Source: a virus. Taken from it: a stretch of 36,070 bases of DNA. Where the stretch lies: UHGV virus genome UHGV-1528002. One strand, 5' to 3'. Numbering within the stretch: position 1 is the first letter of the stretch; every line of letters begins with the position of its first letter. Below the pieces are notes generated by a model. It was not told the origin of the DNA, did not search any database, and saw nothing but the letters and a program-made list of their open reading frames with translations. A program made the position numbers and the translations under genes. Below are positions 2,988 to 35,014 of this stretch, piece after piece.

Positions 2988-3869
2988 TTACATAGATGTT
3001 TCGTTTAATTCTTCCCGACGAACGCTGTAAACGTCGGTGGCTTTTGCCAGCAGTTCGTCATCATCTGAAAGTTTTTGTGCAATGTATTTGTAAGCCTTAT
3101 CCAGTTCGGAGACAGTGCTGTAATTCATCGCTGCGCTGGTAAAGGCCATCAGCATTTCTTCTGGATCACGGCTATCCGCTTTACGCGTTTGCTCATCAGG
3201 CTTTTTCACTGGTTTAGCGTTGATCAGACTGTTCATTCCCGCAGCAGTAGTTGTTTGCGGAGTAATGTCTCGCTCAACGCGCGGTGCCGTTTCCTGTAAT
3301 TCGTCAGGGGTGTAAACACCAAGAAGTACATCAGGAGCGTGCAGGCGAGCCCATCGTTTCGTGCAAAGATAGGCAAGTTGCTGGCGCGGATCCTGTTCCC
3401 ACAATGGAGAGTTACGCACTCCGGCTTGCGCCATACTGATGGTAAGCTCACGTGGTTCTACTTCTCCTTTAAGAACTGCTGACACAGTTACCGTCAGATT
3501 CGGTGATTTATCTGTTTTGCCGTTAACATTCGACCAGTCACCGCTCCAGCGATAATTAAGGCGTGTCGCTAGCAGGCTGGAAGAGGATACGACCGCGTTT
3601 ACCAACTGTGCTTCGTAGCCTAACGTTCCGTTTACCACATGCGTTTTCTGCGCCACGGCGAAAGGGTTCATTCCCCACTGTGCCGCCTGCATGGTCACCG
3701 CCAGGCAATCGGCAGGTTTGCCTTCAAGATGTTTCGGTACAGTCGCTTTGCTTTGTGACATCAACTCCGCGAAACGCACCAGTTGATTCATGCCCTCGGG
3801 GCTGAAGATTGCCGCAGCAGTGCCTACAGTTGCGCCTGGTTGTGATGTGATTGCGATATCATTGCTCAT
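2988..3869 (-). CDS. Single-strand annealing recombinase, Red-beta/RecT superfamily
   Basis: Segments resembling lambda Bet (LAYLCTKRWARLHAPDVLLGVYTPDE, PRVERDITP); 4-nt overlap with the upstream exonuclease gene. Confidence 0.8.
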   Translation of the reverse strand: MSNDIAITSQPGATVGTAAAIFSPEGMNQLVRFAELMSQSKATVPKHLEGKPADCLAVTMQAAQWGMNPFAVAQKTHVVNGTLGYEAQLVNAVVSSSSLLATRLNYRWSGDWSNVNGKTDKSPNLTVTVSAVLKGEVEPRELTISMAQAGVRNSPLWEQDPRQQLAYLCTKRWARLHAPDVLLGVYTPDELQETAPRVERDITPQTTTAAGMNSLINAKPVKKPDEQTRKADSRDPEEMLMAFTSAAMNYSTVSELDKAYKYIAQKLSDDDELLAKATDVYSVRREELNETSM

Positions 3870-4984: not shown

Positions 4985-5157
4985 ATCAGCCCTCCCATAT
5001 CTCGTTATCGTTGGCCACATCGCGAGCTTCTTTGCTGACGAAAGCCCACTTAATGCCTTCCTGTAAGGTGCGAAACTTCCAACTCATGAATCCGCATGCA
5101 GTAACGCAGTACCAACCGTTGATGATTTTCCACTGCATAACTTGTTACCTCGGTCTG

Positions 5158-5291: not shown

Positions 5292-5876
5292 TTATTGTTT
5301 GTTTTTTTCGTTCTGGTTGATGACAAATTCAATGTAACTTTCGATCTTTGCTTTCTCGGTTTCGGGTAACAATGCGTAGCGCGAGCGGTCATAGTTGATG
5401 GTCGCAGGGTCGTGCGGGTGAATCAGTAATTCATAGCCGTGACGCCCGAATGCGGATGCAACATTCTCCAGGGTGGAAATGGAAACGCTGACCTCATTGT
5501 TTAACAGGCGGCTGATTGTCACCTGGGCGACGCCGGATGCGCGGTGAAGTTTTCCCTGAGTTGAAAGGTCGCGGCTTTCGCTCATCCAGCGTTCCAGGTT
5601 GTGAGCCGCCAGCTGACCAATGTCGCTTGGGCCGACAGGCTGAAAACCTTCCTGAGAAAGCGAGCGATCGATATCAAGCCAGTTACGTGGTTTATTGGCG
5701 GCAGCTTCAATTTTTCGCGCAACCTGGTCGCCGATAACCTTCTTGCCAAGAGCCCAGCGGTTTACCAGATTTGCCTGAGTTCCAAGTTTTTCTGCCATCC
5801 GCGTCTGAACACCATTGAATTCACGGTCGATCAAGTCGTTGAGATTTTGCCTGCGGACGTCCTGGATACTTTTCAT
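5292..5876 (-). CDS. Immunity repressor, tandem helix-turn-helix type, no recognisable autocleavage domain
   Basis: Two HTH-like segments (TRMAEKLGTQANLVNRWALGKK and HRASGVAQVTISRLLNNEVSVSISTLENVASAF); divergent from a Cro-like gene and flanked by palindromic operators; no Ala-Gly/Ser-Lys peptidase motif seen. Confidence 0.7.
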   Translation of the reverse strand: MKSIQDVRRQNLNDLIDREFNGVQTRMAEKLGTQANLVNRWALGKKVIGDQVARKIEAAANKPRNWLDIDRSLSQEGFQPVGPSDIGQLAAHNLERWMSESRDLSTQGKLHRASGVAQVTISRLLNNEVSVSISTLENVASAFGRHGYELLIHPHDPATINYDRSRYALLPETEKAKIESYIEFVINQNEKNKQ

Positions 5877-14959: not shown

Positions 14960-15036
14960 TGGCGTGGCATGCAGGATTCGAACCTGCGACCAACCGCTTA
15001 GAAGGCGGTTGCTCTGTCCAACTGAGCTAATGCCAC
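14960..15036 (-). tRNA. tRNA-Arg, anticodon UCU, CCA encoded
   Basis: Minus strand folds as a cloverleaf: acceptor GTGGCAT/ATGCCAC, D-stem GCTC/GAGC, anticodon stem ACCGC/GCGGT with loop CTTCTAA, T-arm GCAGG-TTCGAATC-CTGC, discriminator G plus CCA. Confidence 0.85.
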
Positions 15037-28991: not shown

Positions 28992-31171
28992 TGGCAGCAA
29001 ACGAATTTTTGACGCAGTGCGAGCGCAGTGTAAATGCTGCCGCTGGTCGCGAGCTTTCTTCCGATGAGATGGAGTCGCTGGTGCGTGACATGAACGACAC
29101 CACTAGGCGAATTCTGGCGACCAATGAGGCGCTGTCTCTGGAAGAGGCCGCGATGCGCGCAGCGGAAGAACTGAGCAATGCCGATATGCTGGCAAAACAG
29201 ATTGAGGCTCGCAATAAGGCAATCAACGCCCGTATTGCCGCACAACGACTTAGAGAGCTTCGTACTATCTGGAAAGACCGCCCGGATATCGGGCTTGAAG
29301 CAATGCTGGTTGGCCGCAACGATGCGCGTATCGGCGCCCGCCGGTCGGTATCTTCGGAGGTGGCGCAACTGCGCGGCAAGTATCATTCCGGTATCAACTA
29401 CGATTTTGACCGTGCCGGGCTGGTGCAATTCATCGCCAGCGGCAGCAATGACCGGGAAATTGCCGATGCAATGTGGCGCATAGGGCGCGGGCAGTCAACT
29501 GACGGTATGACAAAGCAATCCGTAAGCGCTGCACAAATCATCATGAAATGGCAGGAAACTGCGCGTATTGATGAGAACCGCGCCGGGGCATGGATACGCA
29601 AAGAGCCGGGCTATATAGTGCGCCAGTCACACGACATCATGAAGATCCGCGCCGCAGGTTATGAAGCATGGCGAAATGCTATTCTCCCGCGCCTTGATGA
29701 GCGCACTTTTGACGGCGTGGCTGACCGCGAGCAGTTCATGCGTAACATTTATAACGGGCTGGCTTCCGGCGTGCATCTTACATCTGAAAAGCCCGATTGG
29801 ATGAATGGCTTTAAGGGATCGGCGAACGCAGCTAAACGCGCCAGCCAAGAGCGAATTTTGCACTTCAAAGATGGTATCTCGTGGCACGAGTACAACCAGC
29901 AATTCGGCACCGGCAGCCTGCGAGAAGCGCTGTTTGGTGGCTTAAACAGCGCTGCCCGCACAACGGGCATGATGCGCGTACTGGGCACTAACCCACAGAA
30001 CATGTTTAAGTACCTGACGGACACCATTGCTGAAGATATCAGCAAATCCGGAAGACCGGCAGCGTTGGCTGACTACATGACGAAGGTGCGTCGCATTAAC
30101 CGTACCGTAATGCCGCAGGTTGACGGCTCGCTAAATATTCCTGGCAGCGTAGGCTGGGCCAATGCGTCGGCGGCTGTACGCGGCTGGTTGCGTATGAGCC
30201 AGCTTGGTGGCGCGGTAATCTCATCGTTTAACGACGTGCCTATCGCCGCTACCGAGATGCGCTACCAAGGGCAGAATTTTATGCAGGCGTTGCTTGGTGC
30301 TATGAGAGGCCGCTTCACGCGTTACAACAGCGCGGAGCAGAAAGAGATCCTTTCCTCTAAGGGGATCAAGCCAACGCAGCGCGCTATCGCTGACGCACGC
30401 GATCAATTGGAAGGGCAGTTGCGCGGCTACATCCTTGACCGCCTGAATATCGCCATGTCAGAGCCTGGCGATCGCACGCAGGCGTTTATGAAGATGGGTA
30501 CGGTGCCAGGAACGGTGGCTGGGGAAGCAATACGATTCGCTGGTCAGTACAAATCGTTCACTGCAAGCTTCATGCAGAACGTGCTAGGACGCGAAGTATT
30601 CGGGCGTGGTTATATTCCTGCTGGGCTTGGTGAGTCGAAAACCGGATCGCTGACGAATGCGCTGCTACGTAACGGGAAGGGGGCTTTCCTTGGCGCTGCA
30701 AACCTCTTTGTCTGGGCGACTATGTTTGGTTATATCTCCATGCAGTCAAAACTCATGCTGAAAGGGCAAACACCACGCCCGGCAGATGCCAAGACGTTTC
30801 TCGCAGCCGCATCTCAGGGGGGCGGTCTTGGCATCTTGGGTGACTTCATGTTTGGCGAAGTCAATCGCATGGGGGCCGGGCCGGTTACGTCGCTAATGGG
30901 GCCGGCAGCATCGAACGCTGACAGCATTATCACGCTGCTCCAGCAGACCACGAGAGGGGATGCAGATTTGGGTGACTGGTATCGCACGGCACTTGACAAT
31001 ACGCCATTCCTCAACGTGTTCTGGCTTCGTACGGCGATGAATGGTTTAATATTGAACCGGATACAAGATGCCCTTGACCCAGGCTCTCTTGAGCGTTATC
31101 AGCGCCGTGTTGAGCGTGAGCAGGGTAACGAATTTCTGATCCCACCATCGCAGTTCATGCTAGGGAAGTAA
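28988..31171 (+). CDS. Internal virion/ejection protein (large)
   Basis: 727 aa, last large gene before the accessory island; ATGA overlap with the upstream gene. Confidence 0.5.
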   Translation: MMAANEFLTQCERSVNAAAGRELSSDEMESLVRDMNDTTRRILATNEALSLEEAAMRAAEELSNADMLAKQIEARNKAINARIAAQRLRELRTIWKDRPDIGLEAMLVGRNDARIGARRSVSSEVAQLRGKYHSGINYDFDRAGLVQFIASGSNDREIADAMWRIGRGQSTDGMTKQSVSAAQIIMKWQETARIDENRAGAWIRKEPGYIVRQSHDIMKIRAAGYEAWRNAILPRLDERTFDGVADREQFMRNIYNGLASGVHLTSEKPDWMNGFKGSANAAKRASQERILHFKDGISWHEYNQQFGTGSLREALFGGLNSAARTTGMMRVLGTNPQNMFKYLTDTIAEDISKSGRPAALADYMTKVRRINRTVMPQVDGSLNIPGSVGWANASAAVRGWLRMSQLGGAVISSFNDVPIAATEMRYQGQNFMQALLGAMRGRFTRYNSAEQKEILSSKGIKPTQRAIADARDQLEGQLRGYILDRLNIAMSEPGDRTQAFMKMGTVPGTVAGEAIRFAGQYKSFTASFMQNVLGREVFGRGYIPAGLGESKTGSLTNALLRNGKGAFLGAANLFVWATMFGYISMQSKLMLKGQTPRPADAKTFLAAASQGGGLGILGDFMFGEVNRMGAGPVTSLMGPAASNADSIITLLQQTTRGDADLGDWYRTALDNTPFLNVFWLRTAMNGLILNRIQDALDPGSLERYQRRVEREQGNEFLIPPSQFMLGK

Positions 31172-32919: not shown

Positions 32920-33606
32920 TCAGAAGAACCCTGCCTTGTCGTTGATGTACTCCGCGTGGGTCTGGATATCACGCAGGCATTTACTCACACCGACGATGTA
33001 GCAGAACATGGTGGTCAGTTCCGCCGCCGCGCCCGATACGTCATGCCCGTCTTCCTGTAACTGGTTCAGCAAATTCATCAGCAGTGAGTTCTCCGTCAGG
33101 CCGAGAACACCAGACGGCGAATGAATCAGGCTGCGGTAGCCGGGCTTCAGCGGGGCACTGTAGGTTTTGTTCTCTATCTTCATCGCCTGCATCACTGCTG
33201 ATGCTGTGGCGTTTGCAACCTGGTCGGCAACCATCTTTATGCGTTCTTCCTGCGGGAGCGAGTTTTTAATGTAACTTCCGGTGCGGCGGATCTGAGGAAG
33301 AACCTCACCTGTAACCCATTTACGAAAGCGGTAGGGGATAGTGCCTGGTGTCACCGCATCGCGGCAGCGGAGGATCAGTGTGTAGAGGCCTGACTCGCTG
33401 ATAATATTGGTTTCGCCTTGACGACCTAAGTTAAATTTAGCCCTTTCATCATCATCAAGAGATTTGATTGACATGGTGGGGTTTGTCAGTTGAAGAGCTT
33501 TAATAACGTCTTTGGCAACAAACCAAGGATTTCCATCAATAACAATGGCTCGAATGGTTGCTTCTGATTCAAAATGAAAAACAGATGGGGTTACGTTAGC
33601 AGTCAT
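32920..33606 (-). CDS. Antirepressor, BRO-N domain with KilAC-like C-terminal domain
   Basis: N-terminal FHFESEATIRAIVIDGNPWFVAKDVIKALQL...IISESGLYTLILRC is the BRO-N pattern; ATG 33606 behind AAGGTGA RBS; C-terminal 75 aa are paralogous to the small gene at 34757-35014. Confidence 0.8.
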   Translation of the reverse strand: MTANVTPSVFHFESEATIRAIVIDGNPWFVAKDVIKALQLTNPTMSIKSLDDDERAKFNLGRQGETNIISESGLYTLILRCRDAVTPGTIPYRFRKWVTGEVLPQIRRTGSYIKNSLPQEERIKMVADQVANATASAVMQAMKIENKTYSAPLKPGYRSLIHSPSGVLGLTENSLLMNLLNQLQEDGHDVSGAAAELTTMFCYIVGVSKCLRDIQTHAEYINDKAGFF

Positions 33607-33762
33607 GGCAATCACCTTTTAGTATGGTTAATCACCACCTGAGGTGCAAATCTCGTTGGTGGTGAGACGTACAGGGTTTGCACTACCGGCTAAAAGGACC
33701 CGGCGCACCTTTCGGTGCCCCTGCACGTCCCACCATAATTCTGGCATGACTGTGCTATACGC

Positions 33763-33784
33763 ATAAAAAAACCACGTCTGGCGT
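33763..33784 (-). terminator. Terminator-like hairpin inside the antirepressor 5' leader
   Basis: Minus strand CCACG-ccaga-CGTGG followed by TTTTTTT, about 160 nt upstream of the antirepressor start. Confidence 0.45.
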
Positions 33785-33877
33785 GGTATGCGCCTTTTAG
33801 TAATCCGGGGTGCAAATCCCGGCACTGGATTTTGCCAGTGCTCAATTACTATGGCACAAGAGGAGTGCGATGTAAAT

Positions 33878-33921
33878 TTACCGCAAAGGTAATGATAAAC
33901 GCTGATAAATATAAAAATCAA
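33878..33921 (-). promoter_or_regulatory. Leftward promoter with overlapping operator driving the antirepressor leader
   Basis: Minus strand TTGATT (plus 33916-33921), 18 bp, TATCAT (plus 33892-33897), then TTACCTTTGCGGTAA (plus 33878-33892) starting at the last T of the -10. Confidence 0.5.
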
Positions 33922-33970
33922 CCGTATTTGGTTGATTGCGTTTAACGCTTGATCACCTGAAAGCAAGATA

Positions 33971-33985
33971 TTACCTTTAAGGTAA
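33971..33985. promoter_or_regulatory. Operator palindrome TTACCTTTAAGGTAA
   Basis: Exact consensus copy 21 bp upstream of the ATG of the membrane zinc-ribbon gene. Confidence 0.5.
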
Positions 33986-34005
33986 TGTTATTGTGAGGAA
34001 AAGCA

Positions 34006-34734
34006 ATGGAAGTTTTCTGGATAGTTGTTGGTGTGGTTGCGGTGATTATTTACGTTATCAACCAGAACAAGACTAAGATCTCTGATCGTACGGTCGTTAA
34101 TCATAACAAAACGATAAAGACCGAAGATGGGGAGATAACGATTAATCGTACACAGGTGATAGAACACACCTCTACTCAGTTTCAAAAAACTGGAGGTAAT
34201 GCGCCTAATATTTCCGCACCTCCTGCTTATGATAGTGCGGTAATCCAGACATATTATAAACAGCAGGAGTTAGCAAAAGAGAGGCAACTGATTCAGCCAA
34301 AGCCGTTTACAGCTGAGCTTCCACCTGGAGTGTCAACGCGTCCGGCATATCATGGAAGATTCCCTGGTGATGACATATCGTCTCAGTCATCTAAAAAAGC
34401 ACCTCAGGCAGTATCAGAGCCAGCAAGAATACCTTCTGTATCGCCGCCAAAAGAAGAATCAGCTAACAGAGTTTCAAGTGGTAGCAAGCAGTGCTTGCGA
34501 TGCAGAATAAACCTTCCATATGAAAAATTCAGGAAATCGTCAAAAAATCCAGATGGATTGACTAAGTGGTGTGCAAGGTGTCTCGATGGCCCAAAGAATA
34601 CACGCCATATGAAGTGGTGCCCAATTTGTAATGTCCGCAGAAAACGAACCAGCTTTTACCCTAATAATCAAAATGCGGACGGCTTAATGGCATGGTGCAA
34701 AACGTGCTGGGATGAGCACAAAGCGAAACGATAG
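34006..34734 (+). CDS. Membrane-anchored protein with tandem C-terminal zinc ribbons
   Basis: N-terminal TM helix (VFWIVVGVVAVIIYVI), low-complexity linker, two repeats of CxxC...NPDGL..WCxxC; GAGGAAAA RBS. Confidence 0.55.
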   Translation: MEVFWIVVGVVAVIIYVINQNKTKISDRTVVNHNKTIKTEDGEITINRTQVIEHTSTQFQKTGGNAPNISAPPAYDSAVIQTYYKQQELAKERQLIQPKPFTAELPPGVSTRPAYHGRFPGDDISSQSSKKAPQAVSEPARIPSVSPPKEESANRVSSGSKQCLRCRINLPYEKFRKSSKNPDGLTKWCARCLDGPKNTRHMKWCPICNVRRKRTSFYPNNQNADGLMAWCKTCWDEHKAKR

Positions 34735-34756: not shown

Positions 34757-35014
34757 TTACCGGGTTTGTTTTCGTAATTGTTCGGCACAATAGTCGAGAT
34801 GTGTTTGCAGATCCTGCATAGACATCTGTGAGCTGGTGACGTAGTTAATCAGTGCAGTCAGTTCGGCAAGTGGGCCATCGACATTAAATCCATCCTTATC
34901 GAGATCCCGGAGTAATTTCATCAAGTGCGATCCCTCCACCAGTGATCTGACGCCTCCCGGCGTGTGAATCCTTTCGGTAAATCCGTCTTCCAGTGGATAG
35001 TGATACTGCTGCAT
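34757..35014 (-). CDS. Small KilAC-like protein (stand-alone antirepressor C-domain paralog), candidate SOS-induced antirepressor
   Basis: ATG 35014 behind GGAGAAG RBS (the track's longer ORF begins at TTG 35032); about 40% identity to the C-terminus of the BRO-N antirepressor (e.g. IHTPGGV / IHSPSGV, AELT, DLQTH / DIQTH); LexA box 22 bp upstream. Confidence 0.55.
   Translation of the reverse strand: MQQYHYPLEDGFTERIHTPGGVRSLVEGSHLMKLLRDLDKDGFNVDGPLAELTALINYVTSSQMSMQDLQTHLDYCAEQLRKQTR

Follow-up and report, generated by a model that had tools for sequence, protein, structure and literature searches.

The leader of the antirepressor gene ant is, judging from its sequence, made up of two catalogued small RNAs, IsrK and the C4 antisense RNA, in the arrangement of P1 and Gifsy-1. 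The locus is an ordinary, well-formed example of a known composite RNA regulator rather than an uncharacterized attenuator. Within the window (the whole 36,070-nucleotide stretch that was analyzed), the region is very probably a P1 immI-type RNA immunity module joined directly to a BRO-N antirepressor gene. RNA identities, structures, complementarities, and covariation were computed here, as was the absence of an intervening ORF. The leader elements, the tandem promoters, and ant all lie on the minus strand, and their coordinates are given from high to low.

A covariance-model search of the leader against RNA families, which the first-pass annotation of this DNA had recommended, returned two minus-strand matches above the Rfam gathering scores: isrK at 33841-33765 (RF01394; 67.4 bits versus a gathering score of 50) and C4 at 33740-33655 (RF01695; 77.8 bits versus 45, a full-length match to model positions 1-87). 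That annotation had suggested attenuation, antitermination, or a separate small RNA; with the IsrK and C4 matches, the small RNA stands and the generic attenuator falls. The leader features that it listed are real but are parts of a known regulator. No Rfam cis-regulatory family was matched in the leader in Rfam scans that included sub-threshold hits. Two other matches in the leader at E ≤ 1, lysM-TM7 and CRISPR-DR57, were far under their gathering scores and fell on the operator palindromes; they were discarded as chance.

The IsrK-type small RNA (33841-33765), equivalent to the P1 a1b1 unit, comprises two hairpins, the second holding box a1 in its loop, then box b1 and an intrinsic terminator. 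Hairpins 1 and 2 were 95 to 98% paired in an alignment of 40 sequences, with covariation, and 17 of the 20 loci scanned had isrK immediately before C4. A consensus match to a sigma-70 promoter of its own would place the IsrK start at hairpin 1. The IsrK bases also matched RF03163 (c4-a1b1) over its full length (E = 5.8e-7), at 34.3 bits, under the gathering score of 46.7; as isrK, they pass. The terminator (33787-33765) has a 6-bp stem, ACCACG/CGTGGT (33787-33771), a 5-nt loop, and a U7 tract (33771-33765). Its hairpin is worth about −7.6 kcal/mol, so partial read-through would be expected. A hairpin and T run occurred at this position in 97 of 101 related loci. A hairpin with a T7 tract had earlier been placed at 33763-33784, which is right to within a few bases, but its function is that of a small RNA terminator and not that of a generic attenuator. 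A helix around the terminator (GCGCAU, 33792-33787, with AUGCGU, 33764-33759) is predicted in most loci; it was rejected as a candidate, since tails exchanged between loci paired at 82% versus 94% for own tails, and the MAFFT columns there were poorly aligned, with 63% of cells paired.

C4, the actual proposed repressor, was overlooked in the first-pass annotation. Its fold is a long closing stem enclosing two hairpins; across the 40 sequences the 17-bp closing stem was 95.5% paired and had 12 base pairs in which both partners had changed, and the hairpins were 99% and 98.5% paired. Alignment to the 77-nt C4 of P1 predicts a mature 77-mer at 33734-33658. Two exposed segments of C4 have complements in the leader. 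Segment b′ (CCUUUUAG, 33697-33690), in the loop of hairpin 2, is a predicted anti-Shine-Dalgarno (anti-SD) sequence, and segment a′ (GUGCAAA, 33683-33677) lies in the single-stranded junction. Within IsrK, box a1 (GATTTGCAC, 33818-33810) has the core UUUGCAC, complementary to a′, and box b1 (ACTAAAAGG, 33801-33793) has the core CUAAAAGG, complementary to the b′ loop. Box a2 (GATTTGCAC, 33652-33644) sits in a small hairpin loop 5 nt past the predicted C4 3′ end, and box b2 (ACTAAAAGG, 33623-33615) contains the ant SD (AAGG), 8 nt before the ATG. Pairing of a2 with a′ and of b2 with b′ gives short duplexes, of 7 and 8 bp, respectively.

The twice-repeated GTGCAAATC noted previously reads GATTTGCAC on the minus strand, and its copies at 33818-33810 and 33652-33644 are the sole two in the 36 kb. 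A second repeat, ACTAAAAGG, had escaped notice; it too has two copies only in the 36 kb, at 33801-33793 and 33623-33615, where 0.19 were expected and no shuffle reached two. The repeats had not been connected with the complementary C4 loops. The inverted repeat CACCTGAGGTG is present as well, at 33636-33646, one base from its earlier placement. The C4 3′ arm (CACCACC, 33665-33659) has an alternative partner in GGUGGUG (33640-33634), with 85% of cells paired versus 31 to 68% when the partner was slid; this pairing may give the read-through transcript a second conformation.

Across 97 related, non-identical viral loci, changes in the C4 segments go together with changes in all four boxes. Perfect complements, 7 nt or longer, to the C4 segments of the same locus were present for a1 in 86%, for b1 in 60%, and for a2 and b2 in 91% each; when C4 segments were swapped between loci, complements were found in 4 to 7% (5 to 6% for a2 and b2). 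Two or three non-C4 loci that were false positives of the pattern scan (e.g., L063 and L089) were left out of the alignments. In the structure alignment of 40 sequences, 87.2% of cells were paired versus 74.8% in shuffles, with 272 double-change cells versus 102; none of 500 shuffles reached the observed values. Duplex energies favored the partner from the same locus, at −35.0 versus −27.3 kcal/mol for IsrK and −32.7 versus −22.4 kcal/mol for the ant translation initiation region (TIR). The C4 segment of the window pairs much more strongly with IsrK (−31.6 kcal/mol) than with the TIR (−19.4 kcal/mol), in line with a decoy role. For the window alone, however, the unconstrained C4-TIR duplex energy lacked significance, since 170 of 500 shuffles did equally well, so it was dropped as evidence for the ant target, and the case for that target rests on the family-wide covariation. 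The gap between the b2 3′ end and the ATG is 8 to 12 nt throughout the family. Genes downstream of 94 loci were nearly all of antirepressor type (Rha, 35; ORF6N, 25; Bro-N, 19; P22_AR_C, 7; KilA-N, 2; AntA, 1).

Two tandem promoters are predicted, as in P1. The upstream candidate, TTGATT-18-TATCAT (33921-33892; 9/12 matches in a consensus scan), had been proposed before together with its operator overlap and is plausible; it would be the counterpart of P1 P2c4/P51a. The overlap of −10 element and operator recurs in the same phage at 5157(−) and 8324(+), and relative to phage TL-2011b the hexamers are conserved, with five changes in the spacer. The downstream promoter, TTTACA-17-(TG)CATAGT (33876-33848), is a consensus match with an upstream TG, and its predicted start, 33841, is IsrK nucleotide 1. 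Its −10 element is 6 nt from G33841, and its spacing to the first hairpin matches that of Gifsy-1 TTGACA-17-TATATT; it appears to correspond to P1 P1c4/P51b and to the Gifsy-1 isrK promoter. This second promoter, which sets the IsrK 5′ end, was missing from the first-pass annotation. The operator motif ATTACC-N5-GGTAAT has 16 copies in the window versus 0.72 expected. The proximal operator (ATTACCTTTGCGGTAAA, 33877-33893) is a palindrome that overlaps the −10/+1 region of the upstream promoter and abuts the downstream −35 element; its half-sites are conserved and its center varies in related loci L001, L007, and L019. It is centered near −44 of the downstream promoter, a position compatible with repression or activation. 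The distal operator palindrome (ATTACCTTTAAGGTAAT, 33970-33986), a perfect match, is 93 bp from the proximal site and sits in the region common to the divergent plus-strand gene at 34006-34734.

The ant gene (33606-32920) encodes 228 amino acids, with a BRO-N domain and a C-terminal domain of ~80 residues. Residues 18 to 104 matched Pfam Bro-N (PF02498; E = 1.5e-19; 70.8 bits versus a threshold of 25.6), and the protein matched PHROG 130, "anti-repressor Ant" (1.6e-56). The earlier call of a BRO-N antirepressor starting at ATG 33606 agrees with these matches and with RefSeq, which uses the same start in a 98.9% identical Escherichia coli locus. GTG 33615 was rejected as a start: it lies inside box b2, and relatives and RefSeq use ATG 33606. 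There is no ORF between b2/SD and ATG 33606, and icd is absent. The C-terminal domain of Ant is homologous to an 85-aa protein at 34757-35014 (40% identity over 78 residues), whose gene is preceded by a LexA box. This homology and the annotation suggest that Ant binds and inactivates the prophage repressor. A candidate for that repressor, a 194-aa protein encoded at 5292-5876 (−), has an HTH_3 match and a second, weak N-terminal match of helix-turn-helix type; a domain search found no peptidase domain in it. The prophage would then have two antirepressor inputs with one C-terminal domain in common, one apparently under SOS control and the other under RNA control. A feed-forward loop with the LexA-controlled small protein had been proposed; such a loop is plausible, but positive feedback describes it better.

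P1 and Gifsy-1 are the models here for RNA processing, for occlusion of the SD in vivo, for IsrK as a decoy, and for Ant as an antirepressor. The tandem promoters would drive the module, the upstream one overlapped by the prophage-repressor operator and the downstream one starting at 33841. Most transcripts would end at the hairpin and U7 tract as a 77-nt IsrK-type small RNA, and the remainder would read through into C4 and ant. C4 would presumably be excised as a stable ~77-nt RNA, as in P1, and its a′ and b′ segments would pair with a2 and b2 on the read-through mRNA. Because b2 contains the ant SD, we propose that ribosomes are excluded and that the lysogen makes no Ant; as in P1, the SD block may lead to Rho-dependent polarity. 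Boxes a1 and b1 of IsrK are duplicates with more extended complementarity to C4, through which IsrK could tie up the C4 sequence either in cis, with the read-through RNA adopting a different fold, or as a decoy acting in trans. Only 3.5 kcal/mol is predicted to separate the two alternative leader folds. Once repressor control is lifted, IsrK would rise, C4 would be titrated, and Ant would be translated and would then inactivate a repressor that has no self-cleavage domain. Inactivation of the processed downstream RNA by IsrK was tested in Gifsy-1, where coexpression strengthened the phenotype instead of weakening it (PMC4825925), which makes the decoy step uncertain.

A broader reading is possible, although we hold it only tentatively and consider it somewhat short of an even chance: in P1-like and Gifsy-like loci and here, the function that the IsrK-type unit has conserved would be that of a C4 target mimic, sequestering C4 in cis through a fold that prevents its maturation and in trans as a decoy. 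This would make the module a leader-peptide-free, three-RNA bistable switch, with orf45 coupling as a lineage-specific add-on. As a′ and b′ reassort independently between phages, it would also be a combinatorial immunity barcode, separable from repressor/operator specificity.

Operation of the Gifsy-1 mechanism proper, in which IsrK acting in trans opens the orf45 ribosome-binding site (overlapping C4) and translation is coupled into the antirepressor gene, appears distinctly unlikely at this locus. It has in its favor RNA modules that are identical in kind to those of Gifsy-1, an AUG in the C4 5′ arm (AUUAUGGUGGG, 33736), and the experimental demonstration of orf45-antirepressor coupling in Gifsy-1 (PMC4825925). 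However, the orf45-equivalent frame here ends at a UAG inside C4 after 17 codons, unlike in Gifsy-1, and the end of this stop is 67 nt short of the ant region, counted to GTG 33615. The frame of the other leader AUG (33747) ends at 33628, 22 nt before the ant ATG, and has no SD, and a stop abutting the downstream start in the Gifsy-1 manner was found in only 9 of 89 loci. Since icd is lacking and the orf45 frame is only 17 codons long, C4 has to target the ribosome-binding site of ant itself. A small protein encoded by the leader, either as the 112-aa mechanical ORF at 33966-33628 or as its 39-aa ATG version, is barely conceivable. The frame is open, but it overlies the promoter, the terminator, and both structured RNAs; it is not conserved, its fate varying between lineages, and substitutions are compensatory for the RNA stems, in agreement with the earlier view that the leader carries no credible ORF. 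In Gifsy-1, orf45 itself has conserved nucleotides and variable amino acids (PMC4825925).

Plain transcription attenuation, in which a protein antiterminator or the transcription rate governs read-through of the hairpin and U7 tract and the structure further downstream is incidental, is also very unlikely. A site like an intrinsic terminator does exist, and partial read-through belongs to the accepted Gifsy-1 model (PMC4825925). Attenuation would nevertheless leave unexplained why the C4 fold is conserved and covaries, why the boxes are duplicated and covary with the C4 loops, and why the SD is located inside b2, and the Rfam scans of the leader gave no cis-regulatory family for it. We regard as similarly improbable that IsrK, C4, or both have host mRNAs or other phage mRNAs as their main targets in trans, with the ant link secondary. 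In favor of this, Rfam names isrK "Hfq binding RNA." The APSE study reported a′/b′ segments matching a distant phage gene (PMC7313666), but within the 36-kb window both boxes are confined to the leader, and the boxes covary locally in 97 loci.

The locus was found at ≥80% coverage in 84 of 5,426 complete genomes. In the one RefSeq E. coli locus examined (98.9% identical), no noncoding RNA features are annotated in the leader; this blank can now be labeled with confidence as IsrK and C4. The gain for biology is modest: a clean case of C4 targeting the SD of the antirepressor itself, with no icd or orf45 intermediary.

Likenesses to P22 and P1 had both been suggested, and the one to P1 holds, with the same layout. 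In P22 sar/ant, a small RNA likewise controls ant translation. The P22 sar RNA, however, comes from the strand opposite to ant and crosses its ribosome-binding site, whereas the regulators here lie on the ant strand and are proposed to act in trans; the Rfam scan of the leader gave no sar match at the gathering score. The CI RNA of satellite phage P4, with seqA, seqB, and seqC, is a processed leader RNA that pairs with target copies upstream and downstream, as proposed here. In P4, the effect is to end transcription of replication genes prematurely and not to occlude an antirepressor SD. The authors of the Gifsy-1 work named the P4 CI RNA system as a structural analogue of IsrK (PMC4825925). 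In the APSE phages of Hamiltonella, an isrK family small RNA and a c4 antisense small RNA are annotated along with a′/b′ (Rouïl et al. 2020, PMC7313666). These RNAs lie upstream of a BRO-N protein, as here, and the leader DNA is 72 to 75% identical; APSE differs in host and phage, and its elements are known from annotation.

In Gifsy-1 of Salmonella (the isrK-orf45-anrP locus; Hershko-Shalev et al. 2016, PMC4825925), isrK and C4 (there STnc1160, within "orf45") precede an antirepressor-like gene, as here, and IsrK supplied in trans raised anrP translation more than 100-fold (PMC4825925). Hfq binding and activation of the downstream gene in trans are IsrK properties that the literature describes for Gifsy-1. 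The two loci share the spacing from promoter to hairpin and alternative folds that pair the central part of IsrK with the C4 a′/b′ region. The predicted minimum-energy fold is the C4 cloverleaf here versus the cis-paired "structure A" in Gifsy-1. AnrP is a different protein from Ant (19% identical in alignment A2), and unlike in Gifsy-1, there is no AntQ gene upstream. The comparison indicates that leader-ORF coupling is not conserved in the system and that the a1/b1 mimic is, which bears on generalizing the Gifsy-1 results.

The P1 mechanism is taken here from GenBank annotation, secondary citations, and general background. The annotation of P1 itself lists Oc4, P2c4, P1c4, a1, b1, c4, a2, and b2, and the element order of P1/P7 immI (Oc4/Op51, P51a, P51b, a1 b1, c4, a2 b2, icd, ant1/2) is identical to that found here: operator, tandem promoters, a1b1 with a terminator-like hairpin, C4, a2, and b2 at the SD. 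The C4 of P1 scores 68.8 bits with RF01695 and is 77 nt long, as is the predicted mature C4 of the window. In P1, a stable C4 RNA of ~77 nt is cut out of the leader, with RNase P acting at the 5′ end. P1 differs in having icd between C4 and ant, translationally coupled to ant, whereas here b2 lies at the SD of ant itself; in Ant1/2 versus a BRO-N protein; in an asymmetric C1 site versus a 17-bp palindromic operator; and in being a plasmid myovirus, whereas the locus here belongs to an integrated prophage whose closest phage match over the region is TL-2011b. Reportedly, in work by Citron and Schuster from 1990, a′ and b′ set the immunity specificity between P1 and P7. The window and TL-2011b, nearly identical in promoter and operator and differing together in a1, a′, and a2, present a likeness to that P1/P7 difference.

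The leader upstream of the antirepressor gene ant is a well-preserved member of the P1 c4/Gifsy-1 IsrK family. A covariance-model search of the leader had been proposed in the first-pass annotation, and when the whole window was searched against Rfam with gathering thresholds applied, three matches came back, two of which fill the leader: isrK (RF01394; 33841-33765; 67.4 bits, gathering score 50) and C4 antisense RNA (RF01695; 33740-33655; 77.8 bits, gathering score 45). A second family, RF03163 ("a1, b1 targets of C4 antisense RNA"), fits the isrK bases with 34.3 bits, below the gathering score (E = 5.8e-7). By alignment with the P1 77-mer, mature C4 is predicted to span 33734-33658 (77 nt). 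The ant gene itself (33606-32920; 228 aa) encodes a Pfam Bro-N domain (E = 1.5e-19) and matches the PHROG "anti-repressor Ant"; gene and leader features all lie on the minus strand. The third Rfam match, outside the leader, is a tRNA-Arg (anticodon UCU; 14960-15036, minus strand); in Gifsy-1, too, the isrK locus has a tRNA-Arg a few hundred bases away.

The first-pass observation as a whole is confirmed, including a hairpin with a T tract (6-bp stem at 33787-33771, then U7), two copies of GATTTGCAC, and a small inverted repeat (palindrome at 33646-33636). Its interpretation holds in part: separate small RNAs and a likeness to P1 are supported, but the "terminator-like hairpin" is the 3' hairpin of IsrK. 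Overlooked were a second promoter and a second exact repeat, ACTAAAAGG (33801-33793 and 33623-33615), present in just two copies in 36 kb versus 0.19 expected. With names following the P1 GenBank record, the exposed C4 segments are b' (CCUUUUAG; 33697-33690), in the loop of C4 hairpin 2, and a' (GUGCAAA; 33683-33677), at the C4 junction. Their reverse complements occur in two copies each, in the order a then b. Box a1 (33818-33810) occupies the loop of IsrK hairpin 2 and is followed by b1 (33801-33793), the reverse complement of b', while a2 (33652-33644) sits in a small hairpin loop 5 nt past the predicted C4 3' end and is followed by b2 (33623-33615). The last bases of b2, AAGG, lie 8 nt ahead of the ATG of ant, which places the Shine-Dalgarno sequence inside this box. 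By complementarity, the leader repeats are C4 target boxes.

The C4 segment pairings in the window are duplexes of 7 and 8 bp only, and the unconstrained energy of the duplex between the C4 segment and the ant translation initiation region (TIR) was, in the window alone, no better than in shuffles. The window alone therefore cannot settle whether the boxes arose by chance, and related loci were collected by scanning IMG/VR viral contigs with a loop-agnostic C4 core pattern, which gave about 55 different loop and junction combinations among about 120 loci. Across 97 non-identical loci, a perfect complement (≥7 nt) of the locus's own C4 segments was found for a1 in 86%, b1 in 60%, a2 in 91%, and b2 in 91%, versus 7%, 4%, 5%, and 6%, respectively, when segments were swapped between loci (some loop/junction, box, and frame tallies used labels reversed from P1, with "a" for the loop and "b" for the junction). 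Box distances from C4 are fixed across the family, the 3' end of b2 falls 8 to 12 nt from the start codon throughout (typically ending in GGA, GGAG, or AGG), and duplex energies favor the own-locus partner by 8 to 10 kcal/mol. The clearest single comparison for box covariation is phage TL-2011b, in which promoter and operator are almost identical to those of the window, a1, a', and a2 have switched jointly (UUUGCAC/GUGCAAA in the window to UUGGCGU/ACGCCAA), and the terminator and C4 stems differ by compensatory changes. Among the IMG/VR loci (L002 to L121), a' and b' reassort independently, the loop GTCCTTTTAG being combined with three distinct junctions and the junction AGTGCAAAC with five distinct loops; this reassortment suggests a combinatorial specificity code.

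The proposed structure is likewise conserved. In an alignment of 40 sequences that included P1 and Gifsy-1 (alignment A1), 87.2% of cells were paired, versus 74.8% in shuffles and 36 to 47% with a slid partner, and 272 cells had changed on both sides, versus 102 in shuffles (0 of 500 shuffles reached the observed values). Pairing in the same 40 sequences reached 95.5% in the C4 closing stem, with changes on both sides in 12 of 17 pairs, and 95 to 98% in IsrK hairpins 1 and 2. The terminator hairpin and T-run, scored per locus because terminator columns were poorly aligned, were found in 97 of 101 loci, at a distance of ~43 nt upstream of the C4 core. In 17 of 20 loci scanned, an isrK match above the gathering score directly preceded C4; of the three exceptions, one is a truncated locus. 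Some viral contigs carry two isrK-C4 cassettes or tandem C4 copies (L045, at 2422-2605 and 3565-3753; L022, at two sites; and L105), and sRNA-Xcc1 occurs near the cassettes in L045 and L073.

The same boxes could also pair in cis. Forcing a1:a' and b1:b' together costs a predicted 3.5 kcal/mol in the window (-100.6 versus -104.1 kcal/mol for the minimum-energy C4 cloverleaf). In Gifsy-1, in contrast, the cis-paired fold is the predicted minimum, in agreement with the published "structure A." A GGUGGUG farther downstream takes up the C4 3' arm in the cis-paired fold; family-wide, this helix is 85% paired, with some covariation. In the window, the C4 segment is predicted to form a much stronger duplex with IsrK (-31.6 kcal/mol) than that formed with the ant TIR (-19.4 kcal/mol), as would be required of a target mimic. 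One co-expression experiment in Gifsy-1 did not fit the inferred decoy step (PMC4825925). In read-through RNA, GCGCAU before the IsrK terminator can also pair with AUGCGU after the U-run (33759-33792, minus strand), enclosing the terminator; predictions for P1-like and Gifsy-like loci show a comparable pairing, but the swap control did not discriminate.

The window has no icd gene, unlike P1, and its orf45 equivalent, which would begin at the AUG at 33736 in the 5' arm of C4, reaches a stop within C4 after 17 codons. In this phage, the predicted C4 therefore has to target the ant ribosome-binding site directly. Read this way, the locus is the mechanistically simplest version of the system, one without a leader ORF. 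Over 89 loci, the frame of the conserved C4 5'-arm AUG was open into the downstream gene, in frame, in 42, stopped within C4 in 18, between C4 and the downstream start in 14, and abutting that start (Gifsy-1 type) in 9, with other fates in 6. This fate is lineage dependent; therefore, coupling to a leader ORF is not a conserved part of the system. Most of the 42 loci with an open frame share a few related loop types and so may represent few lineages. Downstream genes in 94 loci were nearly all of antirepressor type (35 Rha, 25 ORF6N, 19 Bro-N, 7 P22_AR_C, 2 KilA-N, and 1 AntA), and the RNA cassette evidently serves genes of this kind as a transferable upstream module.

Upstream of the cassette, the promoter (TTGATT-18-TATCAT; 33921-33892) and palindromic operator (33893-33877) of the first-pass annotation were both found. 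A search of the whole window for the operator motif, the 17-bp palindrome ATTACC-N5-GGTAAT with up to 2 mismatches, gave 16 sites versus 0.72 expected (135, 5157, 5219, 5931, 6316, 8262, 8324, 12149, 12167, 15358, 32833, 33877, 33970, and 35090, with weaker sites at 30095 and 31233). A total of 14 of the 16 are intergenic, including sites on both flanks of the candidate repressor gene, a pattern suggestive of a single repressor acting at many scattered operators, much as for P1 C1. Operators precede most operons (int, early left, early right, replication, terminase, tail region, ant, and the small antirepressor). The sites at 5157 (minus strand) and 8324 (plus strand) overlap the -10 of a good -35/-10 pair, each with a second operator 62 bp upstream, so that two operator pairs bracket a promoter. 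The upstream ant promoter shares this -10/operator overlap (TATCAT|TACC) and, relative to TL-2011b, keeps its hexamers around a spacer with five substitutions; it is therefore accepted as a plausibly repressor-controlled analogue of P1 P51a. The overlooked downstream promoter (TTTACA-17-(TG)CATAGT; 33876-33848) has its predicted +1 at IsrK nucleotide 1, is spaced as in Gifsy-1, and corresponds to P51b; because its -35 is abutted by the operator, this promoter too may be regulated. An 8-bp hairpin with a T-rich run (AATCAACC/GGTTGATT; 33916-33937, minus strand), flagged by the terminator scan, overlaps the upstream promoter -35, yet no co-directional gene lies upstream for it to terminate.

The candidate repressor (5292-5876, minus strand; 194 aa) matches HTH_3 at residues 106 to 147, with a weak second helix-turn-helix-type match at residues 21 to 61. 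No S24 peptidase domain was among its domain matches, and induction through antirepressors is therefore expected. Upstream of an 85-aa ORF (35014-34757, minus strand; ATG at 35014) lie a near-consensus LexA box (TACTGTATATTTATACAGTT; 35053-35034) and a perfect operator (35106-35090). The ORF product, in PHROG 450 ("unknown function"), shares 40% identity with the last ~80 residues of Ant (E = 1e-19) and is probably a Tum/GfoA-style SOS-controlled antirepressor sharing its working domain with Ant. The arrangement fits the first-pass idea of an SOS-triggered small antirepressor that would lift repression of the ant operon, which would amount to positive feedback. The divergent neighbor of that operon (34006-34734, plus strand; 242 aa), which has the distal operator (33970) 20 bp before its ATG, encodes a hydrophobic N-terminal stretch and two C-terminal segments matching endonuclease VII/Lar-like PHROG families; over its whole length the protein falls in PHROG 6762 ("unknown function").

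Among 5,426 complete E. coli genomes, 84 carry the ant locus at ≥80% coverage and 532 carry part of it. In the one locus inspected in RefSeq (E. coli NZ_CP178656; 98.9% identical), the leader has no ncRNA annotation; a neighboring gene there encodes an endosialidase-domain protein. Records of APSE phages already carry annotations of isrK, c4, and a'/b' ahead of a BRO-N gene. The GenBank annotation of P1 immI lists the Oc4 operator, P2c4 (P51a), P1c4 (P51b), a1, b1, C4 (77 nt), a2, b2, icd, and ant1/2, which the window matches element for element, icd excepted, with a predicted C4 likewise of 77 nt; in Rfam, P1 immI scores 51 bits for c4-a1b1, 35 bits for isrK (sub-threshold), and 68.8 bits for C4. 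Gifsy-1 has isrK, C4, and anrP arranged as in the window. There, anrP is driven by the isrK promoter, the read-through mRNA is translationally silent, and IsrK in trans activates it >100-fold, which the authors credited to "orf45" coupled to anrP; they also described a processed RNA, STnc1160, downstream of IsrK and drew an analogy to P4 CI/seqA (Hershko-Shalev et al., PMC4825925).
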